Origin: Gemmatimonadota bacterium
GTDB taxonomy: Bacteria; Gemmatimonadota; Gemmatimonadetes; Palauibacterales; Palauibacteraceae
Length of the DNA stretch: 64,000 bases
Reading direction: 5' to 3'
Assembly: GCA_965207805.1 (NCBI GenBank)
Contig: OZ242312.1
Coordinates: 684,748 to 748,747 of the forward strand
Made by a program: the position numbers and the translations under genes. Every line of letters begins with the position of its first letter. Position 1 is the first letter of the stretch. Of this stretch, positions 5,032 through 39,848 are shown piece by piece. The notes beneath the pieces were generated by a model. It had not been told where the DNA came from, ran no database searches, and saw only the letters and a program-made list of their open reading frames with translations.

Positions 5032-6435
5032 ATGGTGGCAGATGGCGTCACCGGAACGCCGAGCCGGGAGCGGGGCGCCCTGCTCACGGACCTCTATCAA
5101 CTCACCATGCTCAAGGGGTACTGGGAATACGGCATGCACGAGACCGCCGTGTTCGAGTTCTTCGTCCGCCGCCTCCCCCGGAATCGCAATTTCCTGTTGG
5201 CCGCGGGCCTGGCTCACGTGCTCGACCATTTGGAAGGCCTGCGATTCGAGTCCGACGAACTCGAGTGGCTCGGCGATCAGCCCGGCTTCCCCCCCGCCTT
5301 CGTCGATTGGCTCGCCGATCTCCGCTTCACGGGGGATGTGGACGCCATGCCCGAGGGTACCGTCTTCTTCCCCGGAGAACCTCTGCTGCGCGTTACCGCG
5401 CCGCTCCCGCAGGCGCAACTCGTCGAGACACGGCTCATCTCGCTGCTCAACTACTCCTCCCTCATCGCCTCGAAAGCGGTCCGCTTCACGCTCGCAGCCC
5501 CGACAGCCCGGCTCGTGGACTTCGGTCTGCGGCGGGCACACGGCTCGGAAGCGGGGCTTCTCGCCGCCCGCGCCGCCTTCATCGCCGGCTTCGACGGCAC
5601 CGCGACCGTACTGGCCGGACAGCGCTGGGGGATCCCGACCTTCGGCACCATGGCCCATTCGTTCATCCAGGCGCACGACAGCGAGGCCGACGCCTTCATT
5701 CGCTTCGCCCGCGCCCATCCCGAGAACGCCGTGTTGCTCGTCGACACCTACGACACCGAGGCGGGGGCGTCGAAGGTCGTCGAGATCGCTCGCGACCTCC
5801 GTGCCGAAGGCATCGAGATCAGCGGCGTGCGGCTGGACTCCGGAGATCTCGCGGACCACGCCCGGCGCGTGCGCCGGATTCTGGATGAAGGGCGCTGCCC
5901 CGGCGTCCGCATCTTCGCGAGCAGCTCGCTCGACGAGCACGGCGTGGCCCGCCTGGCCCACGCCCCGATCGACGGCTTCGGCGTGGGGTCCGCCCTCACC
6001 GTGTCGGCGGACGAGCCGACGCTCGACAGCGTCTACAAGCTCCAGGAGTACGCCGGCCGGCCGCGCCGCAAGCGCTCCGAGGGGAAGGCCACGTGGCCCG
6101 GCCGCAAGCAGGTCTTTCGCACCTGCGAACGCGGCCGGCTCGCGCGCGATGTTGTGGGGCTCGAGGACGAAGCGTTGTCCGGCGAAGCGATGCTCCTGCC
6201 CGTGGCGCGCGCGGGAGCACGGCTTCGGCCGGATCCCTCGCTGGAAGAGATCCGTGACCGTGTCCGAACCGCGCTGGAAACGCTCCCGGAGGAACTGCGG
6301 GCGCTCGAATCGGCGCGCACGCCGTTCCCGGTGGAACCATCGCACGGCGTGCGCGAACTGGCCCGGGAAGTCGACCGCCGGTCTTCGGCAGGCGGCAACG
6401 GGGAGGGCTTCGCGGTGCCCGACGGATGCCGCTAG
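5032..6435 (+). CDS. pncB: nicotinate phosphoribosyltransferase
   Basis: Conserved N-terminus LLTDLYQLTMLKGYW and further motifs (FGLRRAHG, GTMAHSF), 467 aa. The large overlapping ORFs 4681..6345(-) and the 5' part of 4946..7810(+) are artefacts. Confidence 0.9.
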   Translation: MVADGVTGTPSRERGALLTDLYQLTMLKGYWEYGMHETAVFEFFVRRLPRNRNFLLAAGLAHVLDHLEGLRFESDELEWLGDQPGFPPAFVDWLADLRFTGDVDAMPEGTVFFPGEPLLRVTAPLPQAQLVETRLISLLNYSSLIASKAVRFTLAAPTARLVDFGLRRAHGSEAGLLAARAAFIAGFDGTATVLAGQRWGIPTFGTMAHSFIQAHDSEADAFIRFARAHPENAVLLVDTYDTEAGASKVVEIARDLRAEGIEISGVRLDSGDLADHARRVRRILDEGRCPGVRIFASSSLDEHGVARLAHAPIDGFGVGSALTVSADEPTLDSVYKLQEYAGRPRRKRSEGKATWPGRKQVFRTCERGRLARDVVGLEDEALSGEAMLLPVARAGARLRPDPSLEEIRDRVRTALETLPEELRALESARTPFPVEPSHGVRELAREVDRRSSAGGNGEGFAVPDGCR

Positions 6436-21288: not shown

Positions 21289-22674
21289 TCAGTTGTCGTC
21301 GTTGCTGTCGTCGTTATCGTCGTCGGTCGCGAGTTTCGCCTCCCGCTCCTCGACGAGCCGCTGGTAGCCTTCCTCCGTGAGGTGCGTCACGGCGAGCCAC
21401 GCGTGCGACATCTCATCCCCCGTGCGCGCGCCGCGCGCGTACCAGATCTCCGGATCGGGGGTCAGTTCGTTCTCCGCCGTGTTGTCGTACCACCCGGTCA
21501 TGACGAGCACCGTCCCGGGCGGGAGCAGCGGCGCCACGTCATCCTCGTAGATGTAGCTGTGGTGCCAGCGGGCGTCGAAGTCCGTGACCATGCTGATGAG
21601 TTCGAGCCTGCCGTCGGGGTAGAGCGCCTGGATCGACATCGCGTGCAGATGCACGTGTCCGTGCGGCTGGAAGCTGTCGAGTCTCACCGGGTGGTCCCAG
21701 CGATAGAACCCCTGCGTCATCGCGGTCCCTCCCGGCGCCAGCGCGATGTCCCCCCTGAGGGGATAGAGGCGCAGATCCTGCTGGAACTCGGGCTTGTAGC
21801 CCTCCTCGTGGAACCAGATCCCGAGCTCGACCTGGTCGCCGGGCACGTCGTATCCCATGGGATAGTAGTGCGCGTCCCACTCGATCATGTCATTCACCTT
21901 CAGGAGCCGACCCGCGTCCGTCGGCACGATCTCGCCGACCTTGCCCATCGCGTACTCCGACAGGCTCTGGATGCGCTGGTACTCCCCTTCCTCGTTGAGC
22001 CTGAGCAGGCGCGGGATCGCGTGATGCACGACCTGACGCCCGGCGGGGAAGGAGGGGCGCGTTTCGAACGCCATCACCCAGCGGTCCTCCTCGAGTCCCG
22101 TCGGCACCCGCGGCCGCCACCAGGTGTCTCCGCCCTCGGCCGGGACGTCAAAGGGCTTCGACTTGATCACGTGATCGGGCGGGCCGAGGATGTCCTCAAG
22201 CTGCCACTTTTGCTCGTTCGGCCACTCGATGGGGGGCGGCAGGTCGGCCGGATCCCCTTCGGGCGCCCCGGCGTCGGCCCAGGCGACGACCGTCTCGATG
22301 TCCTCCTCGCTCAGCCGCCAGTCATCCTTGATGTCCTGGATGCCGACGCCCGTGTCGAGGTGGAACGGGGGCATGAGCCGCTTCGAGACCAGCTCCTTCA
22401 TGCGAGACGCCCAGCGGCGCGTGTCCCTGTAGTCGAGGAGCGGCATCGGACCCACCGATCCCGGCCGGTGGCAGTTCTGGCAGTTCGCCTGGAGGATGGG
22501 AGCGACGTCTTTCGAGAACGTGACATCCGCCTCGGAACCTCCGGCGCCGTTCGCGGCCGGGCCCTGTCCGGCGAGATCCCGGAACGTGAGACCCAGGGCC
22601 AGGGGCATGATGAAGACGGCGAGGGCCGTTGCATGCGACCAGGCATGGCTCGAGTGACGATGCGATCCACGCAT
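21289..22674 (-). CDS. secreted fusion protein: mono-haem cytochrome c domain + copper type II (PHM/DBH-like) monooxygenase-like domain + acidic tail
   Basis: CQNCHRPGSVGPMP haem-binding CXXCH. Downstream His clusters are spaced like PHM CuH/CuM sites (VVHHAIP ... HGHVHLHAMS). C-terminal DDDNDDSNDDN. The monooxygenase assignment is motif-based inference. Confidence 0.5.
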   Translation of the reverse strand: MRGSHRHSSHAWSHATALAVFIMPLALGLTFRDLAGQGPAANGAGGSEADVTFSKDVAPILQANCQNCHRPGSVGPMPLLDYRDTRRWASRMKELVSKRLMPPFHLDTGVGIQDIKDDWRLSEEDIETVVAWADAGAPEGDPADLPPPIEWPNEQKWQLEDILGPPDHVIKSKPFDVPAEGGDTWWRPRVPTGLEEDRWVMAFETRPSFPAGRQVVHHAIPRLLRLNEEGEYQRIQSLSEYAMGKVGEIVPTDAGRLLKVNDMIEWDAHYYPMGYDVPGDQVELGIWFHEEGYKPEFQQDLRLYPLRGDIALAPGGTAMTQGFYRWDHPVRLDSFQPHGHVHLHAMSIQALYPDGRLELISMVTDFDARWHHSYIYEDDVAPLLPPGTVLVMTGWYDNTAENELTPDPEIWYARGARTGDEMSHAWLAVTHLTEEGYQRLVEEREAKLATDDDNDDSNDDN

Positions 22675-22873
22675 GAGTCCTCCTCCTCCTGATGGAACTA
22701 CTCCGCTGCCGCTGCCGGCGACTCCTTATTTAATCCACGGATACAGTGCGAAGAAACGTCGCCTGCGTGCAAGGAGACGTTGCGTACCGCGAAACGCGCA
22801 TCCACGATGGAGTGTTATCCTTGCCGGACACCGAACGGCGAACTGCGGAAGAGAGAACAGTGAGAGCGGACGG

Positions 22874-24940
22874 ATGATGAAGAACCACTGGAGCTGGCGA
22901 CCGAGCAGCGCCCTTCTTCTCCCCCTTCTCTTCGGAGCCATCGCGAGCGCCCCCGCCGCGGCGCAGGGCCCGGGCGTGGAGGGAGCCGCGTGGACCTACC
23001 TCGGGGGCGACGCCTGGCACACCCGCTACACACCGGCGACGCAGATCGATGCGTCCAATTTCGAGAGCCTCGAGGTCGCGTGGCGCTGGGACGCTTCGAG
23101 CTTCGGGCCGAGCACGGCGCGGGCCACGCCGTCCTACGTCGACGGGAAGATGATTACGGTCACGGGCGAGAACCGGCACGTCATCGCCCTCGACCCCTCC
23201 ACGGGAAGACTCCTGTGGAGCTTCGCCGAACCCATGACGTGGCGGCACGAGTACTCGATGCGAAAGGCGTACGGCAAAGGCGTCGCCTATGCCGAGGTCG
23301 ACGGACGCGGCGTCGTCTACATCCTCAGTCCCGGGTTCTTCCTCTACGCCCTCGACGCCGACACGGGACAGCCGCTCGAGAACTGGGGCGAGGCGGTGCC
23401 GCTGCCGGGATTCCCGTCCTCGGGGACGGTGGACCTGGTGGCCGACCTCATCGAGGGCTGGGGGCCGTGGGAGAACCTGAACCAGGAATACGACCCGGAT
23501 CAGGGAATGCCGCTCGAGATCGGCTACATCACGTCGTCTTCCCCTCCCATCGTCGTGAACGACGTGGTCGTCGTCGGCAACTCCGCGGAGCAGGGCTACA
23601 ACCAGACCCGGAAGGAGATGGTCCCAGGTGATATCCTGGCCTACGATGCCCGCACCGGCGAGTTCAAGTGGAAGTTCCACATCATCCCGCGGCCGGGCGA
23701 GTTCGGGCACGAGACGTGGGAGAACGACGCCTGGCAGTGGACGGGTGACGTGTCCCCCTGGGCGCCGCTCTCGGCGGACCCCGAACTCGGACTCGTCTAT
23801 CTCGTCACGAACGGCGCCACGATCGACTATTACGGCGGCTTCCACCCCGGCGACAACCTGTTCGGCACGAGCATCGTCGCGCTCGACGTGGAGACGGGAG
23901 AGCGCCGCTGGCATTTCCAGTTCGTGCACCACGACATCTGGAACTACGATACGCCGACCGCGCCCCTCCTCATGGACGTGGTCGTGGACGGCCGGCCGAT
24001 CAAGGGCGTCTTCCAGGCGACGAAGCAGTCGTGGCTGTACGCGCTCGACCGCGAGACGGGCGAGCCGATCTGGCCCATCGAGGAGCGGCCGGTTCCGCAG
24101 TCGAAGGTGCCGGGCGAGAAGCTCGCCGAAACCCAGCCGCACCCGACGTGGCCCCTGCCCTACGACCTGCAGGGCCGCACCGAGCAGGACCTCATCGACT
24201 ACACGCCCGAACTGCGCGAGATGGCACTCGAGTACGCACGGGAGAACGACCTCTTCGTGCCGCTCTTCAACCCGCCCACGCACGTCGGGAACCCCGATGG
24301 CGAGGGGGCGGCGCTCATCTGCCCCGGCGGTGGCGGGGGCGCGAACATCACCGGGCCGCCCGCCGCGGACCCCGTGAACGGGATCGTCTTCGTCACGTCG
24401 ACCAGCGGGTGCTCGCCGGTCATGGTGGCGCCGGGGATCGAATCCGACCTCGACGGCCCGGACCAGACGGGCGTCACCCACTCCGAATTCTCTCGCGCGA
24501 TCGGCGTCGTGACGGAGAGCACGGCGGACCAGGCGACGGTCGAGGGGCTGAGGATCTGGAAGGGCCCGGTGGGGCGGATCACGGCGATCGACGTGAACAC
24601 GGGCGAACACCTGTGGATGATCCCGCACGGGGACGCGCCCGAGCGGCAGCAGGCGGTGATCCGCGACCATCCGATGCTGCAGGGAGCGGACGTGAATCCG
24701 AACCAGGGCCGACGCGGCCATTCCGCCATGGTTGCAACTCCGACGCTCCTTCTTGCGTCTGGACAGACGAGCGATGGGACGCCGCACCTGTTCGCGATCG
24801 ACAAGCGGACCGGCGAGCGCGTGGGGCAGGTGGAGTTGCCGGGCAACACGCGCTACGGAATGTCGAGCTGGGTCCACGAGGGCAAGCAGTATGTGATCAT
24901 CCAGCTGACCGACGGACTTGCGGCGCTGGCCCTGCCCTGA
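22874..24940 (+). CDS. PQQ-dependent dehydrogenase (quinoprotein alcohol/sugar dehydrogenase family), secreted
   Basis: Signal peptide MMKNHWSWRPSSALLLPLLFGAIASAPAAA. Repeated W-containing propeller motifs and a DxW...W pattern typical of 8-bladed PQQ propellers; ~688 aa. Confidence 0.7.
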   Translation: MMKNHWSWRPSSALLLPLLFGAIASAPAAAQGPGVEGAAWTYLGGDAWHTRYTPATQIDASNFESLEVAWRWDASSFGPSTARATPSYVDGKMITVTGENRHVIALDPSTGRLLWSFAEPMTWRHEYSMRKAYGKGVAYAEVDGRGVVYILSPGFFLYALDADTGQPLENWGEAVPLPGFPSSGTVDLVADLIEGWGPWENLNQEYDPDQGMPLEIGYITSSSPPIVVNDVVVVGNSAEQGYNQTRKEMVPGDILAYDARTGEFKWKFHIIPRPGEFGHETWENDAWQWTGDVSPWAPLSADPELGLVYLVTNGATIDYYGGFHPGDNLFGTSIVALDVETGERRWHFQFVHHDIWNYDTPTAPLLMDVVVDGRPIKGVFQATKQSWLYALDRETGEPIWPIEERPVPQSKVPGEKLAETQPHPTWPLPYDLQGRTEQDLIDYTPELREMALEYARENDLFVPLFNPPTHVGNPDGEGAALICPGGGGGANITGPPAADPVNGIVFVTSTSGCSPVMVAPGIESDLDGPDQTGVTHSEFSRAIGVVTESTADQATVEGLRIWKGPVGRITAIDVNTGEHLWMIPHGDAPERQQAVIRDHPMLQGADVNPNQGRRGHSAMVATPTLLLASGQTSDGTPHLFAIDKRTGERVGQVELPGNTRYGMSSWVHEGKQYVIIQLTDGLAALALP

Positions 24941-30147: not shown

Positions 30148-31019
30148 CTAGCCGCCCCGGATCTGGAACGTGAGCGTGGCCCAGTTGGACTCGTAGTCGA
30201 GGTCGGGCTCCGATGGCGTCTCGACCATGTGAATCGTCCGGATGTACCACCGACCTCCGCCGACGAGCGGGATCGTCGCGACGCCGTCCTCGTTCGTGCG
30301 AGCCTCGACCGCCTCGTTGTGTGCACCGGTATCGTCGTGCGAGTGGGGGTTGAATTCGTAGTTCGCGTAGAGAAGCGCGTTCTCGACCGGCTTGCCCGCG
30401 CGGAGGAAGCGCACCTGGAGTTCGTCGCCTACGACGAGATCATACGGGTTCTGCAGCGGGATGATCTCCACCGGATAGCCAAGCTCCTCCGCCCACTCGC
30501 CGCTTCGGTCGTCTCCCACCTGGACGATCGCCTTCACGTGTTTGCTGTAGCGCTCGACCGCGTCGTCGTCCGTCTTGCCGGCCGCTTCGCGCTGCGCGAT
30601 CTCGTCGACCAGGCCTTCGTGAACCAGGTATTCGTAGAACGCCGTCGCATCGAGCGGGATCACGCGCGCCGCCGTCGACACGCCGATCGTGTAGGTCCCG
30701 GCCGAGCCCGTCTCGAAGGTCAGCAGCGCCGTGTCCACGCTGTCCGCATGCCAGTGGAACATCGCCGTGTCGCGCCACGCCTCCGGCGGCGGGTTCACGA
30801 CCCCATCCGGTCCCACGATGCTCACGTCGAGCATGCGGTCACGCGTGATGTGGTTCTCGCTCTCGTCGAAATCTCCATTGAAGAGCGCCACGACGTTCGT
30901 CGAATTCGGCTCCAGGAAGAAACTCTCGAGCTTCAGGAACATCGTGTGCGCCCGCGCCGTCGCGACGATGGCAACGGTCAACAGGCCGGCGGTCAACAGG
31001 ACACGGCGTCCGATCTTCA
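30148..31019 (-). CDS. periplasmic DUF4198-like protein (family often associated with Ni/Co uptake)
   Basis: ATG 31019 preceded by GGAGGA. Signal MKIGRRVLLTAGLLTVAIVATARA. Family assignment is from memory of the fold pattern. Confidence 0.45.
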
Positions 31020-31196
31020 TCAGGGATCCTCCGGAGTCTCCGGCTTCGCGGGTTCGTTGGCGCAGCGCCGAGCAACATGCGCCGACCCAGGCGGGTTGGG
31101 CCATAGTCGGCGGCGGGCCGGCGTTGTCCCCATAGCCGAAAGTGCCGATCATTGCCCCCCGCTTGCGACGGTGACGGTTCAACTCCGGGGGAACGA

Positions 31197-31865: not shown

Positions 31866-33314
31866 TTGTCACACGTTGTGACACAAACCACTGCTCGAGC
31901 CGGCGGGGGGCTGCTCCTCGGCGGCGTACTCCTGTGGGCGTGCTCGGCCGGTTCTGGTGCCGGCGGTACGGCCTCGGAGGACGGCCGGCTCCTGATCGAA
32001 GGCGGTACGGTCGTCGTGATGGACGCCGCCGGCACCGTCCTCGAGGGGGGCGCGGTACTCGTGGAGAGGGACAGGATCTCCGCCATCCTCGACGGTGAAG
32101 CTCCCCGCCCCGCCGGCGTGCCGGTGCTCGACGCGACGGGGCACCTCGTGATCCCCGGACTCGTCAACACGCATGGCCACGCCGCGATGTCGCTCCTGCG
32201 GGGACTCGCCGACGACATGCCGCTGATGACCTGGCTGAACGAGCACATCTTCCCCGCCGAAGCCGAACTGGTCGATTCCGAGTTCGTCTATTGGGGCACG
32301 CTGCTCTCGTCCATCGAGATGTTGAAAAGCGGGACGACGACGTTCGCGGACATGTACTACTTCCGGGATGACGCGGCGCGGGCGGTCATCGACGCGGGCA
32401 TCCGCGCCGTCATGGGCCCGCATGTCATCGGCTTCCCCGCCCCCGACTTCGCCTCACCGGCGGCGACGCTGGCCGACGCGGCCGGGTTCATGGAGACGTA
32501 TCGCGACCATCCCACGCTGGTTCCGGGAACCGCCGCACACTCGCTGTACACGACGTCCCTCGACGATGTGCGCGGCGCGCTGCGGTTGGCCATCGACCAC
32601 GGTGCCCCGTTTCAGATCCACACGGCCGAAGACGCGAGCGAGTTCGCGACGGCGACGGAACGGACCGGGATGGGGGTGGTGGAGGCCCTCGAGTCCCTCG
32701 GCGCGCTCCGCCCAGGCACTGTGCTCGCCCACTCCATCTACCTCTCGGACGAGGACATCGAACGCATCGCGGCCGGGGGCGCCGGGGTCTCACACAACCC
32801 GCAGAGCAACCTCAAGCTGGGAATCCCGCGGGCGGCGCCGGTCGTGAAGCTGCTCGCCGCCGGCATCCCCGTGGGGCTGGGGACGGACGGCGCGGCGAGC
32901 AACAACGACCTCGACCTGTTCGACGAGATGGACTCGGCCGCCAAGCTCCACAAGTTCACGAACGCCGACCCGACGGCGCTCCCCGCCGAGACCGTCTTTC
33001 GCATGGCCACGATGGGCGGCGCCCGCGTGCTCAATCTCCACGACCGCATCGGGTCGCTCGAGCCGGGCAAGCGGGCGGACATCGTGCTGCTCGATACGCG
33101 GCGCGCCGGGCTCACGCCCCTCTACAACGTCTATTCCCACCTCGTGTACGCGGCGCGGGGGAGCGACGTCTCCACGGTCCTCGTGAACGGCCGCGTCGTC
33201 GTCAGGGACGGCCAGGTGCTCACGGTCGACGAGGCGGAGGTCATGGAGCGGGCGTACACCTTCCGCGACCGGGTGCGGGAGGTCATCGCCCGGGTGGCCG
33301 AGGAGGCGCGCTAG
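31866..33314 (+). CDS. amidohydrolase, MtaD/SsnA/chlorohydrolase (ATZ/TRZ) family deaminase-like
   Basis: HxH motif VNTHGHAAMSLLRG, HTAE, GLGTDGAASNNDLDLF and a C-terminal Asp region. The gene is 4 nt downstream of the peroxiredoxin. Confidence 0.75.
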   Translation: MSHVVTQTTARAGGGLLLGGVLLWACSAGSGAGGTASEDGRLLIEGGTVVVMDAAGTVLEGGAVLVERDRISAILDGEAPRPAGVPVLDATGHLVIPGLVNTHGHAAMSLLRGLADDMPLMTWLNEHIFPAEAELVDSEFVYWGTLLSSIEMLKSGTTTFADMYYFRDDAARAVIDAGIRAVMGPHVIGFPAPDFASPAATLADAAGFMETYRDHPTLVPGTAAHSLYTTSLDDVRGALRLAIDHGAPFQIHTAEDASEFATATERTGMGVVEALESLGALRPGTVLAHSIYLSDEDIERIAAGGAGVSHNPQSNLKLGIPRAAPVVKLLAAGIPVGLGTDGAASNNDLDLFDEMDSAAKLHKFTNADPTALPAETVFRMATMGGARVLNLHDRIGSLEPGKRADIVLLDTRRAGLTPLYNVYSHLVYAARGSDVSTVLVNGRVVVRDGQVLTVDEAEVMERAYTFRDRVREVIARVAEEAR

Positions 33315-33351: not shown

Positions 33352-33972
33352 CTATGCGCCGCTCGCGTGTCCCGGCGCGGCAGGCGGCGTCCAGCCCGTC
33401 GCGGCCCGGCGTTCCTGCACGCAGCGCTTGAAGCGGAAGGCATTCTCGGGCAGGGCGAAGTCCATCCCGTAGTTGTCGGGACCCACGGCGTCGACGCGCG
33501 CCACGATCACGCCGAGGTCATCCCGCTCCATCGCCTCGACGAACACTTCCCCGAACGCCATCGGCGAGTCCACGGCCACCGCGTGCTCGATCCCGGCCCC
33601 GCGCGCGATCGCGGCGAGATCCGTGACGCCCGAGGTGGTGTGCGACTCGAACCCTCCCGTCGAGAGGAGGCTCCCGTTGTCGAAGATGATGTGGAGGAGG
33701 TTCCGGGGCCGGTAGCGTGCGAGGGTGGTGAAGGTGCCGAGGTTCATCAGCGCCGATCCGTCCCCGTCCAGCACGACCACCCTCTCGTGCGGCAGATGGT
33801 TCGCGAGGCCGAGGCCGATCGACGAGGCGAGCCCCATCGCGTGCTGCAGGTAGAAGAAGTTCTCGCGGTGGCCGAGGTCGTACAGTTCCTGGGCGCAGGC
33901 CCCCATGATCGTGACGACCAGCTTGTCCTCGATCTCGGGGTAGATCAGTTCCAGGCAGTCCTCCCGCCGCAT
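33352..33972 (-). CDS. TPP-dependent decarboxylase beta subunit (sulfopyruvate/phosphonopyruvate decarboxylase ComE-like; TPP/Mg-binding)
   Basis: TPP-binding motif VLDGDGSALMNLGTFTT...N; ~206 aa. Confidence 0.7.
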   Translation of the reverse strand: MRREDCLELIYPEIEDKLVVTIMGACAQELYDLGHRENFFYLQHAMGLASSIGLGLANHLPHERVVVLDGDGSALMNLGTFTTLARYRPRNLLHIIFDNGSLLSTGGFESHTTSGVTDLAAIARGAGIEHAVAVDSPMAFGEVFVEAMERDDLGVIVARVDAVGPDNYGMDFALPENAFRFKRCVQERRAATGWTPPAAPGHASGA

Positions 33973-34009
33973 CAGGCCTCCTTCCCCCGCCTGGATCCGC
34001 TATGCCGCA

Positions 34010-34519
34010 TCACACTTCCATGAGGTCGCGCGTCAGCAGCAGCGCGACGGGCGAGAGCGAACTCTGCGACAGCGTGTACGCCTCGGCGATCTCCTTCGCG
34101 ACGAGCGCCGGATCTCTCGCGTGGTGGTAGGGGATGTTGAGCGCCTGAAGCAAACCCTCCGTCACGATCCCGCCACGAGTGTGCCACGGATACGGCTCGC
34201 CCCAGTGACCCCGGACCGCGATGAGCATGCAGAGCGGGACGGAATAGAGCTGGGCGAGGGAGATGATCCCGTTCATCGCGGCGAAGAAGCCGTGGTTCTG
34301 CATGAGCAGGATGTGCGGCTCGCCGGCGAAGTAGGCCCCGGCCGCGATTCCGACCGCCTCCTCCTCCTTGGCGACCTGGATGAGGTCGACCTCGGGATCG
34401 TCCTCGGCGCGCTGCAGGAGGAGACCGAGCCAGGTCTCCGGCAGGGCGGAGATGCTCCGGATGCCGGCGGCCTTGATCCCGTCGAAGATGGCCTTCGAGT
34501 TCTCGTAGGAGACGGTCAT
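34010..34519 (-). CDS. TPP-dependent decarboxylase alpha subunit (ComD-like, pyrimidine-binding domain)
   Basis: ATG at 34519. ~169 aa. Conserved ComD-like N-terminus ([20 protein letters not shown]). Confidence 0.7.
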
Positions 34520-34650
34520 GGGCCGAAGGGTGCGCGGACGGCTCGGGCGGCGCAATCCCGCCGGCGCGGCGGCCCGTCGCGCCAAAACGGCGCACAGGTT
34601 GCGCCACGCGGCGACCCGTGAACACCATGAACACCCAGCAAGGAGTGCGT

Positions 34651-35418
34651 ATGGACGAATCGGAAGGGCGGCCGGTCGACCGGCGCGGGTTCATCAGGGA
34701 CGCGGCGGTGGGTGCGGCCGCATTCGCCGCCCCGGGGAAGCTGATGGCCGACCAGACGGAGTCTCACGATCACGGCCATGATCACGGCCACGACCACGAT
34801 CACGACCACCAGGACGTGCCGCCGGACATCGCGCTCCGGGTGCGGGCGCTGGAGTCCGTCCTCGTGGAGAAGGGGATGGTGGACTCGGCGGCGCTGGACG
34901 AGATCGTCGACACGTACGAGAACCGGATCGGCCCGCGGAACGGAGCCGAGGTCGTCGCGCGCGCGTGGGTCGATCCCGCGTACCGGGAGCGCCTCCTCGC
35001 GGATGGGACCGCGGCGATCGGCGAACTCGGCTATCTCGGCGGCCAGGGCGAACACATGAAGGTGGTGGCGAACACTCCGGAGGTGCATAACCTCGTCGTG
35101 TGTACCCTCTGCTCGTGCTACCCGTGGCCGACGCTGGGGCTCCCACCCGTGTGGTACAAGTCCGCCCCCTTCCGGGCGCGGGCGGTGATCGAACCGCGCG
35201 CCGTGCTGAGCGAGTTCGGCCTCGACGTGCCCGAGGATGTCGAGGTCCGCGTCTGGGACAGCACGGCGGAGATCCGCTATCTCGTGCTCCCCGAGCGGCC
35301 CGACGGCACCGAGGACATGACGGAGGAGGAGTTGGCGGGGATCGTCAGCCGTGACTCGATGATCGGCGTGGCGCGGGTCGAGGTGCCGTCCGGCGGCCCG
35401 TCGGGAGGCGACCAGTGA
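34651..35418 (+). CDS. nthA: cobalt-type nitrile hydratase alpha subunit with an N-terminal twin-arginine signal and a His-rich tract
   Basis: Active-site [10 protein letters not shown] (Thr indicates Co-type) and strong similarity of the body to NHase alpha. The N-terminal extension [33 protein letters not shown] is Tat-like, followed by [22 protein letters not shown] 34651 is preceded by AAGGAG. Alternative starts are GTG 34618 and ATG 34627. Confidence 0.85.
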
Positions 35419-36071
35419 ACACGATCCACGACATGGGCGGCATGGACGGCTTCGGCCCGATCGGGCCCGAGGAGAACGAACCCGTCTTCCACCACCGCTG
35501 GGAAGGGCGTGTGTACGCGCTCACCAGGGCGGTCGGTCCGTGGGGCCGGGGGCGCGAATGGCCGTCCTTCCGCTACACGCTCGAGAGCATCCCCCCCGTC
35601 GAATACCTCAGCATGTCCTACTACGAGCGCTGGTTTCGGATGATGACGACCCGGCTGCTCGTAAGCGGTCTCATCTCCGAGACCGAACTGGAGACGGGTT
35701 ATCCGGATCCGGGGGCGCCGCGGCCGGAGCTGCTCCCGCCTTCGAACACCGGGGCGCCGGGGGCCGGGCTCCTCGACATGGACGTGCCGGCACGCTTCGG
35801 ACCGGACGACCGGGTGCGCGCGCGTAACCTGCACCCGCGCGGCCACACGCGGCAGCCGCGCTACGTCCGCGGGCGGCAGGGAACCGTGGTCCAGGACTAC
35901 GGCGTCTACGCGCTGCAGGACACGGACGAGGACGGACGGCGTCCCGTCGACCGCCGCCCGCAACACGTCTACTCGGTGCGCTTCGAGTCGGAGGAACTGT
36001 GGGGCGAGCGGGGCGGCGCGAGCGACGCGGTGTACGTGGACCTGTGGGAAGACTACCTGGAGCCGGCGTGA
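35415..36071 (+). CDS. nthB: nitrile hydratase beta subunit
   Basis: Canonical N-terminus [15 protein letters not shown]. 218 aa. Start overlaps the alpha stop. Confidence 0.85.
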
Positions 36072-36448
36072 TGTCCGGGGCCGAGCGCGTCGACGCCGAG
36101 CGTCTCGCGGCGCTCCCTCCCCTGCCCGCCGACGAGGAGGGCCCGGTGTTCGAGGCGCCGTGGCAGGCGCAGGCCTTCGCGCTTGCCGTCAAGCTCTCCG
36201 AGGAGGGGCACTTCACCTGGAAGGAGTGGGCCGGGACGCTCGCCGACGAACTCGCCGAGGCGGAGGCGCGCGGCGAGCCGGACGACGGCTCCCGGTACTA
36301 CCACCACTGGGTCGCCGCCCTCGAACGGCTCGTCGTCGACCGCCGGCTGAGTTCCTCCGCGGCTCTCGACGATTGCAAGGAGGCGTGGGCGGACGCCTAC
36401 CGCCACACCCCCCACGGCCAGCCCGTGGAACTGCACCGCACCGACTGA
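36071..36448 (+). CDS. nitrile hydratase accessory/activator protein (beta-homologue, P14K-like)
   Basis: 125 aa. ATG overlaps the beta stop (GTGATG). Similar to the NHase beta N-terminal helices (PVFEAPWQAQAFALAV). Confidence 0.65.
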   Translation: MSGAERVDAERLAALPPLPADEEGPVFEAPWQAQAFALAVKLSEEGHFTWKEWAGTLADELAEAEARGEPDDGSRYYHHWVAALERLVVDRRLSSSAALDDCKEAWADAYRHTPHGQPVELHRTD

Positions 36449-36459
36449 ACATAGCCACG

Positions 36460-36483
36460 CGTTCCCGCGGGAACGTCTTTCTC
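36460..36483 (+). terminator. Rho-independent terminator candidate: palindrome CGTTCCCGCGGGAACG followed by TCTTTCTC
   Basis: Perfect 16-bp palindrome with a T-rich tail immediately after the NHase operon stop. The same palindrome recurs at 13682-13697. Confidence 0.5.
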
Positions 36484-36500
36484 GAAGCTGGGAGGCGACG

Positions 36501-39500
36501 ATGCGCCATCACGATCACTCGCCGTCGCTCGGGATCCTCTTCTCGATCTTGCTAATTCCCGCCCTGGCCTGTGCGGATCCGGAAGACGTACCGGATCGGG
36601 ACGCGGCGGGCGGGGTGCCAGGCGGCTCGGTCGACGCGTCGGTGCTCGAGGTGCTGGAGTGGCGGCCCATCGGCCCGTGGCGGGGCGGGAAGTCCATCGC
36701 CGGGGCCGGGCACCCAACGGAACCCGGCGTGTTCTACATGGGGAGCACGAACGGAGGCGGCGTCTGGAAGACGGACGACGCCGGGGTGAGCTGGCACAAC
36801 CTGTCGGACGGGTACTTCGGGACGACAACGGTCTCTTCGCTGGCAATCTCGGAGTCGGATCCCGACATCCTCTACGTCGGCACGGGAGACGTCTCGTTCC
36901 GCACCAACATCTCGCGCGGCGACGGACTCTACCGTTCGGATGACGCCGGACGCACGTGGCGGAACATGGGACTCGCGGACACCCGGAACCTCTCGGCCAT
37001 CGAGGTCCACCCGCGCGACCCGGACCTCGTCTACGCCGCCTCTCACGGGCACGGGTTCATCCCGGACGAGAACCGGGGCGTGTACCGCTCCCGCGACGGC
37101 GGCGAGACGTGGGAGCGCGTCCTGTACGTAGACGACGAAACCGGGGTCATCGACCTCGTCATGGACCGGAGCGCGCCCGGCACACTCTACGCGGCGACAT
37201 GGAACGGTCGGCGCTTTCCGTGGACGATCAAGGACGCCGGGCCTGGCAACGGGGTGTGGAAGACGACGGACGGGGGCGACACCTGGGAGGACATCTCGGC
37301 GGCCCCTGGACTCCCCGCCGGCCTGAAGGGGCGGATCTCGCTCGACATCTCCCGGTCGCGGCCGAATCGCGTGTGGGCGCTGATGACCGCCGAAGGGGAC
37401 GGCACGGGTGGCCTCTACACCGCCGACGCGCCCGGACAGGCGGACTGGCTCCCGTGCCGCGACTACTACTGCTCCGGCAACGGGCTCTACCGCTCCGAGG
37501 ACGGCGGCCGCAGCTGGGAGCGGGTGGCCGACAACCCCAACTTCTTCCAGCGCCCGTGGTACTACACGCACGTCGCGGCCGACCCCACCGACCCGGATGT
37601 CGTGCACGTGCTCAACACGTCGATCTGGAAGTCTACGGATGGGGGCGAGAGCTTCACCGCCCTCACGACCCTCCCGCACGGCGACCACCACGCGCTCTGG
37701 ATCGACCCCGCTGATTCACGCCGCATGCTGGGCGGGGGCGACGGCGGCGCGACCGTGACGCTCAACGGGGGGCGCACCTGGTCGTCGGTCGAGAACCAGC
37801 CCACGGGCCAGATGTACAACGCCTCGGTCGACGACGACTTCCCCTACAACGTGTGCGCGCCGCAGCAGGACAACACGAGCATCTGCGTGCCCAGCCGCTC
37901 CGACGAGGGCGCGATCTGGGACTACCAGCGCTGGACGACGGCCGCGGCCGAGAACGGGGGGATCGCGGTCCACCCCGACCGGCTCGACGTGAGCTACGGG
38001 GGCGACCACCACTGGATCGCGCGCGTGGACCGCTCGACGGGAGAGCGCCGCTGGATCTCCGTCTGGGGGGAGAACTACTACGGCACGGGCGAGGACCAGC
38101 TCCGGTATCGGCAGGTGTGGGACGTAAAGCTCTTCCTCTCGCCGCACGACCCGGACGTGATGTACACGGCGACCCAGTACGTGCACCGTTCGACGGACGA
38201 GGGCGAGAGCTGGGCGGACATCTCCCCCGACCTCACGCGCGCCGACGAGACCCGCTTCGAAGCGACGCCCCCCTCCGATCGCGGCGAGTTCTGGGGCCTC
38301 ACGCGCGAGAATGTGGGAATCGAGTGGTATGCCGCGATCGCAAGCATCGCCGAGTCGCCCCTGCGGGAAGGGGTGCTGTGGACGGGCTCGAACGACGGCC
38401 TCGTGTACATCTCGACGGACGGAGGAGGAAGCTGGGAGAACGTCACGCCGCCCGACATGGAGCCCGACACCTGGGTGAGCGTGGTCGAGCCGTCGCGTCA
38501 CGATCCGGCGGCGGCCTACGTCTCCGCCAACCGGCACATGATGGGGGACGACGCGCCGTCCGTGTGGGCGACCTCGGACTACGGCGCCACCTGGCGCCGC
38601 ATCGACGCGGACTTCCCCGCGGACGACTTCGTGTGGGTCGTGCGGGAGGACGACGAGCAGCCGGGACTCCTCTACGCCGGCGCGGAGTGGAGCGGCGTGT
38701 GGGTGAGCCTGGACGACGGGGAGAACTGGCACTCGCTGCGACTCAACCTGCCGGTCACGCCGGTGCGCGACATCAAGGTGAAGGAGGGCGACATCGTCGC
38801 GGCCACGCACGGGCGCGCACACTGGGTCCTCGACGACATTTCGCCGCTGCGGCAGCTCGCGGCGGCGGGAGTGGCGGTGCGCGGCGACGGCGGCGGACCG
38901 GACGCGGACGACGGCGTGCGCCTGTTCACGCCACGGCCCACGATCCGGTTCCGCGAAATGGTCACCCGGGCCACCTTCGGCGGCCTCTGGATGCCGAACC
39001 CGCCGAGCGGCGTCGTCCTCCGCTACTACCTGCCCCGCGCCCCCGAGGGCGAGGTCCGCCTGTCGATTCACGAGGCGGGCGACGACGGGGCCGAGGGGGC
39101 GGAAATCCGCACCTTCTCGAGCCTGGGGGCCGCCCCCGAGCCGGGGCCGGATCTCATCGACCCGGCGGACCTGGTGGAGCCGGGGCTCCCCGCCGAGGCC
39201 GGGGCGAACGCCTTCGAGTGGGACATGCGGTATCCGGAGCCCGTGGACTGGGTCCCGAAGACGCTCTACCGCCATCGCGATCCGTACGGGCCGCTGGCGC
39301 CCCCAGGCCACTACGAGGCGCGGCTGACAGTGGACGGCGAGACGTTCGCGGCCCCGTTCGAGATCGTGCCGGACCCGCGCGTGGCGACGCCGCAGACCGA
39401 GTTCGACGAACAGTTCGGCTTCCTGATCGCGATCCGGGAGAAGATCGGCGAGAACCACCGGGCCGTGTCCCGCATCCATAATCTGCGGCGGCGGATCGTG

Positions 39501-39848
39501 GAGGCGATCGAGGCCGCGGCGGGGACGGAGGGCGCGGCCGACATCGCGCGCGCCGGAGCCGAACTCGACGCCCGGCTGTGGGAGATCGAGGACCAGTTGC
39601 GGCAGTTCCGGCCCTCGCGAGAGCATCGCGCCAAGCAGGAACTCATCAACTGGCCGGTCCGTCTCGACGACAAGTTCGCGAAGCTGCTCGAACACGCGGA
39701 GGCATCGGACGCGGCGCCCACATCGCGCGACCGCATGCTGTTCGACGACCTGTCGGAACGTCAGGAGGAACAGATCGAGGAACTCGGCTTCATCGAGGAA
39801 GGCGAGGCGGCCCGCTTCTTCGACGCCGCCAGAGGCGGAGGTCCCTGA
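36501..39848 (+). CDS. BNR/Asp-box repeat protein (sortilin/VPS10-like or GH74-like beta-propeller), secreted
   Basis: Multiple S-x-D-x-G-x-T-W Asp-box motifs (SDDAGRTW, SRDGGETW, TTDGGDTW, SEDGGRSW, STDGGESF, STDGGGSW, SLDDGENW). Signal peptide. 1115 aa. Confidence 0.7.
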   Translation: MRHHDHSPSLGILFSILLIPALACADPEDVPDRDAAGGVPGGSVDASVLEVLEWRPIGPWRGGKSIAGAGHPTEPGVFYMGSTNGGGVWKTDDAGVSWHNLSDGYFGTTTVSSLAISESDPDILYVGTGDVSFRTNISRGDGLYRSDDAGRTWRNMGLADTRNLSAIEVHPRDPDLVYAASHGHGFIPDENRGVYRSRDGGETWERVLYVDDETGVIDLVMDRSAPGTLYAATWNGRRFPWTIKDAGPGNGVWKTTDGGDTWEDISAAPGLPAGLKGRISLDISRSRPNRVWALMTAEGDGTGGLYTADAPGQADWLPCRDYYCSGNGLYRSEDGGRSWERVADNPNFFQRPWYYTHVAADPTDPDVVHVLNTSIWKSTDGGESFTALTTLPHGDHHALWIDPADSRRMLGGGDGGATVTLNGGRTWSSVENQPTGQMYNASVDDDFPYNVCAPQQDNTSICVPSRSDEGAIWDYQRWTTAAAENGGIAVHPDRLDVSYGGDHHWIARVDRSTGERRWISVWGENYYGTGEDQLRYRQVWDVKLFLSPHDPDVMYTATQYVHRSTDEGESWADISPDLTRADETRFEATPPSDRGEFWGLTRENVGIEWYAAIASIAESPLREGVLWTGSNDGLVYISTDGGGSWENVTPPDMEPDTWVSVVEPSRHDPAAAYVSANRHMMGDDAPSVWATSDYGATWRRIDADFPADDFVWVVREDDEQPGLLYAGAEWSGVWVSLDDGENWHSLRLNLPVTPVRDIKVKEGDIVAATHGRAHWVLDDISPLRQLAAAGVAVRGDGGGPDADDGVRLFTPRPTIRFREMVTRATFGGLWMPNPPSGVVLRYYLPRAPEGEVRLSIHEAGDDGAEGAEIRTFSSLGAAPEPGPDLIDPADLVEPGLPAEAGANAFEWDMRYPEPVDWVPKTLYRHRDPYGPLAPPGHYEARLTVDGETFAAPFEIVPDPRVATPQTEFDEQFGFLIAIREKIGENHRAVSRIHNLRRRIVEAIEAAAGTEGAADIARAGAELDARLWEIEDQLRQFRPSREHRAKQELINWPVRLDDKFAKLLEHAEASDAAPTSRDRMLFDDLSERQEEQIEELGFIEEGEAARFFDAARGGGP

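Follow-up and report, generated by a model that had tools for sequence, protein, structure and literature searches.

A conserved predicted twin-arginine signal peptide on the alpha subunit of a cobalt-type nitrile hydratase from an uncultured Gemmatimonadota bacterium

Nitrile hydratases (NHases) are industrial biocatalysts (for example, for acrylamide and nicotinamide) and have been studied as cytoplasmic enzymes. An NHase operon of an uncultured marine Gemmatimonadota bacterium (Candidatus Palauibacter) raises the question of whether this location holds for the whole family: an earlier, sequence-only reading of the surrounding 64,000 nucleotides (hereafter the window, that is, the whole stretch of DNA analysed) proposed that the alpha subunit carries a twin-arginine (Tat) export signal. 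We ask here what the operon encodes, whether the N-terminal extension of alpha is translated, whether it resembles a Tat signal in this and related sequences, and which explanation accounts for it best.

The operon (34651–36448; + strand, as for the parts and flanking elements of the operon given below) encodes NHase alpha, NHase beta and a P14K-type accessory protein, all three of which exceed their NCBIfam equivalog cut-offs in profile searches. The alpha gene extends from an ATG at 34651 to 35418 (255 amino acids) and contains a catalytic core at residues 55–255 plus stop codon (34813–35418; PF02979 and TIGR01323), with alpha scoring 315 bits against TIGR01323 (314.9–315.1; cut-off 249.85) and 299 bits against PF02979. 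Its metal site, V-C-T-L-C-S-C (residues 150–156; 35098–35118), has the Thr of the cobalt type; the full motif is invariant in alignment A1, and CTLCSC is present in 119 of the 120 listed homologues. The beta gene (35415–36071; 218 amino acids; TIGR03888, 192 bits, cut-off 152.2) starts at a GTG that overlaps the alpha stop codon (GTGA), and the gene of the P14K/NhlE-type accessory protein (36071–36448; 125 amino acids) starts at an ATG that overlaps the beta stop codon (TGATG). The accessory protein scores 95.1 bits against TIGR03889 (cut-off 46) and 38.6 bits against PF21006 (NHase_beta_N). The tightly coupled operon of cobalt-type alpha, beta and activator genes that had been read from the sequence is borne out by these scores and overlaps.

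The closest solved structure to both structural subunits is the Co-type NHase of Pseudomonas putida NRRL-18668 (5B), which is accompanied by P14K: 3QXE_A is the best PDB match of alpha (E = 1e-94), and beta residues 1–218 align with residues 1–219 of 3QXE_B, an alignment that takes in the arginine motifs FR.. and GHTRxPRY. The two systems share VCTLCSC, the alpha–beta–P14K gene order (PMC3680314) and a His/Asp-rich alpha N-terminus, whereas an RR signal is lacking in the P. putida alpha, which belongs to a cytoplasmic enzyme, and the alpha described here is longer at its N-terminus by about 40 residues and has a more extended His tract. The gene order had been regarded as more typical of Fe-type enzymes, a view that does not hold, as Co-type enzymes of the P. 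putida lineage are documented to have it too (PMC3680314); the accessory gene also lies 3′ of beta in relatives. The L- and H-NHases of Rhodococcus rhodochrous J1, with their self-subunit-swapping chaperones NhlE and NhhG, likewise have a Co-type site and a small accessory protein homologous to the beta N-terminal domain (compare the PF21006 match), but differ in their beta–alpha–chaperone order and in having neither signal peptide nor His tract. By sequence criteria, the operon encodes a P. putida-type Co-type NHase (EC 4.2.1.84, alpha2beta2 class), and a non-corrin Co(III), oxidised Cys ligands and nitrile-to-amide activity are predicted from membership in the Co-type class. Two other assignments were rejected, namely an NHLP RiPP precursor (TIGR03793 matches a sub-region of alpha at 63 bits, but alpha is full length, retains the Cys cluster and scores above the cut-off of the NHase equivalog model) and the gamma subunit of thiocyanate hydrolase (TIGR03887, 183.9 bits against a cut-off of 291.45; the structural enzyme here has two subunits, not three).

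Where alpha starts decides whether it has a signal, as RefSeq (PGAP) models of the same cluster are 221–224 amino acids long and start at Met32 (ATG 34744), with the signal removed. Five nucleotides 5′ of ATG 34651 lies a ribosome-binding site, AAGGAG (34640–34645), whose duplex energies with a generic anti-Shine–Dalgarno (SD) sequence are −6.6 to −11.0 kcal/mol in six genomes, compared with −2.5 to −8.0 kcal/mol before Met32 and an in-CDS background of −4.8 ± 3.0 kcal/mol. The earlier proposal of an RBS-supported ATG is therefore upheld by a site that is conserved and stronger than the one before Met32. Further upstream, a promoter-like element (TTGCGC, 34599–34604; 18-nt spacer; CACCAT, 34623–34628) is kept as TTGCG[CT] and CACCAT, CACGAT or CAAGAT 5′ of the orthologue in five relatives while the sequence around it diverges; a sigma-70 consensus scan did not detect the element at 34599–34628, and we infer its promoter function from conservation. 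The GTG at 34618, from which an open-reading-frame list starts alpha (34618–35418), was rejected: the element spans it, and in relatives the gene begins at the ATG. Among relatives, SD sequence, ATG and promoter-like element are conserved and divergence begins immediately 5′ of the SD sequence, and changes in codons 1–33 across six Palauibacter-clade genomes are mostly synonymous (four synonymous and no non-synonymous differences between the window and L081; seven and one between L081 and L084), with pN/pS of 0–0.4 in most pairs of these relatives compared with 0.14–0.20 in the core. Because change is mostly synonymous and the ATG, SD sequence and promoter-like element are conserved, we conclude from this comparison that the extension is translated from ATG 34651 and is under purifying selection among relatives.

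Residues 1–33 of alpha (34651–34749) are predicted to be a Tat signal peptide on the basis of TIGR01409, motif and conservation. They comprise an n-region of 10 residues, D-RR-GFIR at residues 10–16 (RR at 34681–34686), an Ala-rich h-region of 12 uncharged residues (Kyte–Doolittle (KD) mean 1.43) that has Pro and Gly at its end, and a c-region, K-LMA, which contains a Lys. D-R-R-G-F-I-R was taken as a match to the Tat consensus (S/T)-R-R-x-F-L-K. The match to TIGR01409 (TAT_signal_seq) is a marginal pass by 0.2 bits (16.9 bits, cut-off 16.7), but the same model is matched at E ≤ 0.1 by 24 of 24 diverse homologues (best, 7.4e-5), 20 of which also match a formate-dehydrogenase Tat-region model. 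Across 74 distinct homologous N-termini, the motif [GD]-R-R-x-F-[IL]-[KR] has RR at about residue 11 in all 74, F at +2 in 73 and K or R at +5 in 72, followed by an uncharged h-region with a median length of 15 residues and a mean KD of about 1.0; RR is also invariant in alignment A1. The h-region of one large clade is very Gly/Ala-rich and weakly hydrophobic (KD about 0.5–0.9). In 101 of 102 distinct N-termini, n-, h- and c-regions are all kept and a small-x-small site precedes the His tract, although small-x-small sites are nearly guaranteed in Ala/Gly-rich sequence and their count says little.

The RR-x-F-x-R signal and hydrophobic stretch that had been noted on alpha are thus present. As to the AxA-like cleavage region also proposed, cleavage after A33 (L-M-A|D) is possible and acceptable though not textbook A-x-A, with acidic residues directly after it; in many homologues, the His tract is immediately preceded by A-x-A|Q (AHA|Q and ARA|Q, for instance). 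An extension of about 65 residues absent from characterised NHases had been claimed; the extension is there, but it precedes the Pfam/TIGR core by about 58 residues counted from the ATG and exceeds the 3QXE alpha by only the 40 or so residues given above. An AlphaFold model of alpha, poor overall (mean pLDDT 61), shows only that residues 1–53 lie outside the fold. A regular-expression scan of the 64-kb window found no other convincing Tat leader or canonical Tat substrate, and a molybdopterin oxidoreductase at locus L083 that was examined as a Tat substrate has no RR leader and is uninformative about Tat in the lineage.

The survey of alpha homologues for RR signals that the sequence-only reading had called for recovered the [GD]-RR-x-F-[IL]-[KR] signal from more than 100 different alpha N-termini (Gemmatimonadota, Acidobacteriota, Chloroflexota and Proteobacteria), every one of them a MAG or metagenome sequence. 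Among the 80 best NHase-alpha matches in a one-genome-per-species collection, it occurs at ten loci (Acidobacteriota, Chloroflexota, Steroidobacteraceae and Alphaproteobacteria), and several representatives of 50%-identity clusters carry it as well. Its tripartite architecture is kept across phyla while the sequence drifts. In a core-only neighbour-joining tree, Tat and non-Tat alphas interleave (at least about 15 parsimony changes), and signal-less Gemmatimonadota sisters are 82–86% identical in the core. Judged from these comparisons, the Tat signal on NHase alpha has been gained or lost repeatedly, and the Tat type recurs as a minority form among the Co-type NHases that uncultured bacteria from several phyla encode. 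Because RefSeq start calls remove the signal, searches of RefSeq models will not show this class.

After the signal region, alpha carries a His/Asp tract of 15 residues (H39–H53; 34765–34809), which had been read as part of an extension that sets alpha apart from characterised NHases. The tract is peculiar neither to this protein nor to export, as it also occurs in signal-less sisters and as the beta–alpha linker of fused NHases (PMC7193024), and the P. putida alpha (3QXE) begins MGQSHTHDHHHD, a homologous, shorter His tract. Shared in this way with cytoplasmic sisters and with P. putida NHase, the tract is, on homology, an older lineage trait and not an export adaptation. The fused beta-(His)17-alpha NHase of Monosiga brevicollis similarly has a His-rich tract right before the alpha core, though it is eukaryotic, has fused subunits and lacks a signal peptide; similar beta–alpha fusions are found among cluster representatives, and the M. 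brevicollis tract was reported not to be required for metal incorporation (PMC7193024). The likeness to Ni/Co metallochaperones that had been pointed out is real to the extent of weak matches to the His-rich loops of RcnA, UreE and HypB, but it belongs to a lineage trait; its role is possibly cobalt capture.

As previously read, beta has no signal of its own: it aligns residue 1 to residue 1 with P. putida beta, and in all 18 Tat-type loci examined (the window and 17 others) beta lacks a signal and starts at the family's residue 1 with M/V-N-x-[IV]-H-D-M-G-G, directly after alpha or, in L087, after the accessory gene. Alpha bears a signal and beta none, which is the arrangement of Tat hitch-hiker hetero-oligomers, with a signal on one subunit only. 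In E. coli hydrogenase-2 (HybO/HybC) and DMSO reductase (DmsA/DmsB), for example, one subunit has the RR signal, and the partner and cofactor are assembled in the cytoplasm and co-exported, although these are redox enzymes with dedicated signal-binding chaperones. A further parallel is MncA, a Tat-exported Mn-cupin of Synechocystis for which the metal is selected in the cytoplasm before export; the proposed NHase export would follow the same logic (a metal that competes weakly is inserted in the controlled setting of the cytoplasm, and Tat export follows once the holo-protein has folded), but MncA has an unrelated fold and metal and a single subunit. To our knowledge, no NHase and no non-corrin cobalt enzyme has been established as a Tat substrate.

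We suggest that Tat export of a pre-assembled, cobalt-loaded alpha–beta complex is the best explanation of the alpha signal, and probably the correct one. After translation of alpha from ATG 34651, which the conservation described above demonstrates, the accessory protein would load cobalt in the cytoplasm and mature the alpha Cys ligands, and alpha would assemble with the signal-less beta. This step is modelled on the documented self-subunit swapping of the homologous enzymes, which is the maturation route of P. putida NHase and takes place in R. rhodochrous J1 in the cytoplasm before final assembly (PMC3680314). The folded, metal-loaded alpha–beta complex may then be exported by Tat, beta being carried along by the signal of alpha, and a signal peptidase cut near LMA|D would leave a mature alpha with the His/Asp tract at its N-terminus, as in the cytoplasmic sisters. 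Nitrile hydration would consequently occur in the periplasm. When pelB (that is, the Sec route) was fused to P. putida alpha and P14K, it was left unprocessed, and the activity remained with the enzyme in the cell extract (PMC3680314), which fits an enzyme that folds first and depends on Tat.

The divergently oriented pair of genes for a split TPP decarboxylase, described as ComD/ComE-like, is present, but its matches to ComD/ComE-type models fall below the cut-offs (104 against 148 bits and 129 against 221 bits); it adjoins the NHase in L081, L082, L084 and L085 and is absent in L083, L086, L087 and L088, and a functional link was rejected as synteny within the genus only. No conserved exported partner (an amidase or similar) was found beside Tat-type cassettes in the window and relatives, which speaks against export; the genes that flank them are unrelated (PMT, pro-kumamolisin, GGDEF, tannase, eCIS core, aminotransferase IV, AceK and PQQ dehydrogenase), and a lipoprotein-like amidohydrolase at 31866–33314 was discarded as an amidase partner, being a TRZ/ATZ-type deaminase or hydrolase with scores below cut-offs. 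At the Tat-type locus L088, a gene 3′ of the accessory gene weakly resembles NicO/HoxN-type Ni/Co transporters, far below the cut-off, and would fit cobalt import into the cytoplasm. The clean terminator said to end the operon is not supported: the palindrome GTTCCCGCGGGAAC (36461–36474), followed by GTCTTTCTC (together 36461–36483), is a weak terminator at best, none was called there by a terminator scan, and 36440–36500 folds with the same energy as shuffled sequence (z = −0.07).

Export is not the only reading of a translated RR peptide. It could act in the cytoplasm as a docking or proof-reading peptide, as the vestigial Tat leader of NarG does in binding NarJ, or in variant form bind the accessory protein or serve as a regulatory or metal-handling tail of a cytoplasmic enzyme. 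The absence of conserved exported partners and the weakly hydrophobic Gly/Ala h-regions of one clade would suit such a role. Vestigial Tat leaders, however, typically lose the RR pair or the h-region, whereas here both arginines are invariant and the n/h/c architecture with its small-x-small site persists in 101 of 102 distinct N-termini. Although the NHase accessory protein does associate with alpha while the enzyme matures (PMC3680314), Tat-type and non-Tat operons have accessory proteins of one family and signal-less sisters mature without any RR peptide, and we regard docking as unlikely. The enzyme could also be exported with its signal uncleaved, the signal anchoring it on the periplasmic face of the membrane as in Rieske proteins; the c-region here, with no textbook A-x-A and with acidic residues right behind it, would allow for this, but an h-region of 12 uncharged residues ending in Pro and Gly is too short and too mild for an anchor and many homologues have A-x-A|Q before the His tract, which makes permanent anchoring very unlikely.

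Two further readings turn on Met32. Under dual targeting, ATG 34651 would yield the exported form and Met32 (ATG 34744) a cytoplasmic isoform that starts just before the His tract, with an N-terminus like that of the signal-less sisters. Met32 is present in every Palauibacter-clade sequence (KLMA, KVMG, EIMA and KTMT) and is the start that PGAP picks, but the SD-like signal before it is at background strength, only about 9 of the 24 diverse Tat-type alphas have any Met in the region, and Met32 may simply be what is left of an ancestral start once the gene was extended 5′; we hold two forms to be quite unlikely. The other reading, in which the 221–224-residue PGAP models are right, Met32 is the sole start and the RR sequence upstream is an untranslated artefact of annotation, is essentially refuted by the purifying selection on codons 1–33, by the conserved ATG with its strong SD sequence and divergence right 5′ of it, and by a peptide architecture that the proteins of different phyla still share although their DNA has long lost any identity. 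Tat export with beta hitch-hiking on alpha, as originally proposed, keeps its central support (that is, a signal that is translated, conserved and confined to alpha), whereas three arguments once offered alongside it (the His tract, the gene order and the TPP link) are wrong or overstated.

Full-text literature searches returned no description of a Tat-type or periplasmic NHase, and the co-mentions of ‘twin-arginine’ and ‘nitrile hydratase’ that were checked are unrelated; secretion goes unmentioned in a 2020 review of NHase gene types. In its widest form, the proposal would be that Tat-type NHases are an unrecognised class of exported cobalt enzymes, the first NHases outside the cytoplasm and the first Tat-carried non-corrin cobalt enzymes with a hitch-hiking partner, which in sponge-associated lineages such as Palauibacter would act on nitriles of the host matrix. 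For the soluble aeroplysinin-1 nitrile hydratase activity of Aplysina sponges, neither the gene nor the producer was ever traced (PMC3766881), and these enzymes would be candidates; we consider this whole extension speculative and improbable as it stands. If Tat-type NHases are indeed exported, the Tat repertoire would gain a new class of cofactor, non-corrin cobalt bound by oxidised Cys ligands, and one more hitch-hiker pair, as well as a further example of a weakly competitive metal that is loaded in the cytoplasm before export. Such export would also offer a natural model for whole-cell catalysts with NHase in the periplasm, where substrates reach the enzyme more easily and toxicity to the cytoplasm is avoided, and models of nitrile turnover in the environment by Acidobacteriota, Chloroflexota, Gemmatimonadota and sponge symbionts would have to change.

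The nitrile hydratase (NHase) operon is a compact set of three genes (34599–36483, forward strand), and its sequence-only reading as an alpha-beta-activator operon of the cobalt type holds. The alpha gene (34651–35418, +; 255 aa) opens with an ATG 5 nt after AAGGAG, the beta gene (35415–36071, +) with a GTG inside the GTGA overlap of the alpha stop, and the accessory gene, of the ordinary P14K/NhlE type (36071–36448, +), with an ATG inside the TGATG overlap of the beta stop. All three products exceed their NCBIfam equivalog cut-offs (TIGR01323, 315 bits, cut-off 250; TIGR03888, 192 bits, cut-off 152; TIGR03889, 95 bits, cut-off 46, respectively), the Pfam domains agree and the alpha metal site is VCTLCSC, that is, cobalt type. 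The nearest solved structure is 3QXE, the Co-type NHase of Pseudomonas putida NRRL-18668 (alpha, E = 1e-94; beta, 1–218 aligned to 1–219); the predicted structure model of alpha is poor. As the thiocyanate hydrolase model matches alpha only below cut-off and the NHLP RiPP-leader model only in a sub-region, alpha was placed in neither family. The 90% cluster of alpha bears the name Candidatus Palauibacter (Gemmatimonadota), and the Palauibacter order is uncultured and salt-associated, reaching its highest abundance in sponges and marine sediments (PMC10469786).

The alpha family core begins at approximately residue 59, and sequence comparison indicates that the extension preceding it is translated, given the conserved ATG and Shine–Dalgarno (SD) sequence, the synonymous bias of codons 1–33 and an SD stronger than that before the internal Met32. 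The ribosome-binding site and start proposed for the extension are retained in 6 Palauibacter-clade genomes amid divergent neighbouring sequence, together with a promoter-like element (TTGCGC-N17/18-CACCAT) approximately 25 nt further upstream; the GTG at 34618 (the start in the ORF listing) falls inside this element and was rejected as the alpha start. Changes in codons 1–33 are mostly synonymous (4 synonymous and 0 non-synonymous between the window and the clade locus L081; 7 and 1 between L081 and L084, also of this clade), with a pN/pS of 0–0.4 in most pairs (core, 0.14–0.20). Duplex energies with a generic anti-SD are −6.6 to −11.0 kcal/mol at the first ATG and −2.5 to −8.0 kcal/mol before Met32, against an in-gene background of −4.8 ± 3.0 kcal/mol. 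RefSeq/PGAP models of the same cluster (P0121–P0125 and P0139–P0141; 221–224 aa) start at Met32 (window 34744) and drop the twin-arginine (RR) region, and unnamed 249–271-aa models (ENA, JGI/IMG, Logan and non-RefSeq NCBI records) retain it, so that most of the Tat-type class goes unseen among RefSeq protein models. Met32 as the sole start is essentially refuted. A second, signal-less isoform initiated there is conceivable, because every Palauibacter-clade alpha keeps a Met where the signal meets the mature protein (window 34741–34749; L081–L086; contexts KLMA, KVMG, EIMA and KTMT), but the SD before Met32 does not rise above background and most other Tat-type clades lack this Met. Met32 may be the relic of an ancestral start codon after 5′ extension.

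The proposed RR-type Tat signal at the alpha N-terminus passes the TAT_signal_seq model only narrowly (TIGR01409; 16.9 bits, cut-off 16.7), and the comparative evidence is stronger than this marginal score. In an alignment of 24 sequences (68–81% identity), neither arginine varies and the Phe at +2 is almost invariant; TIGR01409 is matched at E ≤ 0.1 by 24 of 24 and a formate-dehydrogenase Tat-region model by 20 of 24. The survey of alpha homologues envisaged at the outset found the same architecture in approximately 75 of the best 120. Across 74 distinct N-termini, the RR pair lies at approximately residue 11 in the motif [GD]-R-R-x-F-[IL]-[KR], close to the textbook S/T-R-R-x-F-L-K, and is followed by an uncharged Ala/Gly-rich stretch (median 15 residues; mean hydropathy approximately 1.0), with the His tract setting in approximately 29 residues past RR. 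Many homologues carry A-x-A↓Q immediately before this tract (for example, AHA↓Q or ARA↓Q), where the window alpha has L-M-A↓D. The h-region drifts freely in sequence while retaining its composition, as signal peptides do.

Other features initially singled out proved less distinctive. The His-rich tract is not special to this alpha: P. putida alpha starts MGQSHTHDHHHD, most signal-less relatives begin with a His-rich run, and fused beta-alpha NHases have a His-rich linker at the equivalent position. Six 50% cluster representatives (P0198, P0213, P0238, P0243, P0259 and P0268) are such fusions with long His/Asp-rich linkers, homologous in position to the window tract, as in the Monosiga (His)17 enzyme, in which the linker was reported to be dispensable for metal insertion (PMC7193024). 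The alpha-beta-activator order, taken for an Fe-type trait, is that published for the P. putida Co-type lineage (PMC3680314), and a clean terminator after the operon is not supported.

Among the 80 best-matching NHase-alpha loci of a collection with one genome per species, 10 carry the RR leader, all in MAGs (Anaerolineales, Chloroflexota, Bryobacterales and other Acidobacteriota, Steroidobacteraceae and one alphaproteobacterium), and it recurs in several 50%-identity cluster representatives (P0154, P0179, P0194, P0196, P0246 and P0278). Across 183 NHase alpha genes on plasmids of cultured strains, no alignment covered the extension, which is probably why the variant escaped experimental notice. 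On a neighbour-joining tree built from core regions alone, Tat-type alphas are interleaved with signal-less ones, and at least approximately 15 parsimony changes are needed; the tree is rough and this count only indicative. Signal-less Gemmatimonadota sisters (for example, the Longimicrobiales locus L006) share 82–86% core identity. Given this interleaving and such close sisters, the signal behaves as a module repeatedly gained or lost on an otherwise unchanged enzyme.

We consider it reasonably likely that the RR signal drives Tat export of alpha. Beta was correctly described as signal-less: in the window, as in 17 further Tat-type loci, it begins at the first residue of its family, directly after the alpha stop, the exception being the Tat-type locus L087 (order alpha-accessory-beta), in which it begins after the accessory gene. 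Cobalt enters the P. putida enzyme by self-subunit swapping via an alpha–P14K complex, and a pelB (Sec) leader on alpha and P14K was not processed, with active enzyme remaining in the cell extract (PMC3680314). Taken with the dependence of the enzyme on inserted cobalt and oxidised Cys residues, these observations agree with a holo-complex that would fold first and then leave through Tat, with beta hitch-hiking on alpha. A purely cytoplasmic role of the leader in chaperone docking, as in NarG, is possible, but the RR pair is intact and the n/h/c architecture complete, and retention of an uncleaved signal as a membrane anchor is unlikely because the h-region spans only 12 residues. At the Tat-type locus L088, the end of the accessory gene overlaps a NicO/HoxN-like Ni/Co transporter gene (5359–6087), matched only weakly and with scores far below the cut-offs; this gene recalls the NhlF cobalt transporter of Rhodococcus NHase clusters and is consistent with cobalt import into the cytoplasm for loading. 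A DUF4198 protein with an N-terminal signal (30148–31182, −; Pfam, 114 bits), encoded 3.4 kb upstream of the window operon and with a homologue in the clade locus L085, belongs to a family corresponding to periplasmic Co/Ni-binding components (COG5266); a link to cobalt supply is possible.

Among the genes neighbouring the Tat-type cassettes of the loci examined, we found none that encodes a conserved exported partner enzyme. The divergent, split TPP-enzyme pair is present (33352–34585, −) and resembles sulfopyruvate/phosphonopyruvate decarboxylases, but it scores below the ComD/ComE and all other equivalog cut-offs. The pair accompanies the operon within Palauibacter only, being absent from other Tat-type loci, and in L085 (4691–5860) its C-terminal-domain gene is apparently split into 132- and 75-aa pieces. 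The gene at 31866–33314 (+) encodes a TRZ/ATZ-family amidohydrolase (419 bits, cut-off 540) whose N-terminus is lipoprotein-like (…LLWAC…), and L084 and L085 show the same synteny with the NHase region; as the protein does not belong to the amidase-signature enzymes, it is no obvious partner for the amide product. A gene for a PQQ-dependent dehydrogenase, a periplasmic enzyme class, ends 19 nt before the Tat-type alpha in L087 (5907–7982), and the window has another approximately 10 kb upstream of its operon (22673–24940). Directly downstream of the window operon (36501–39848, +), and at the same position in L085, is a secreted 1115-aa BNR/Sortilin-Vps10 repeat protein. A class IV aminotransferase gene precedes the Tat-type cassette in L003 (3234–4175) and L088 (1129–2106), otherwise different loci, which may reflect lineage synteny or be a functional hint.

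In the titles, abstracts and excerpts from a full-text search of 8 million papers, we found no report of a Tat-type or periplasmic NHase, and we regard the present NHase as a real localisation variant of a familiar enzyme, conserved and apparently not described before. Aplysina sponges contain a soluble aeroplysinin-1-specific NHase activity, which is suspected to be bacterial in origin (PMC3766881). If they are exported, the NHases of sponge-associated Palauibacter would, speculatively, be candidates for this activity.
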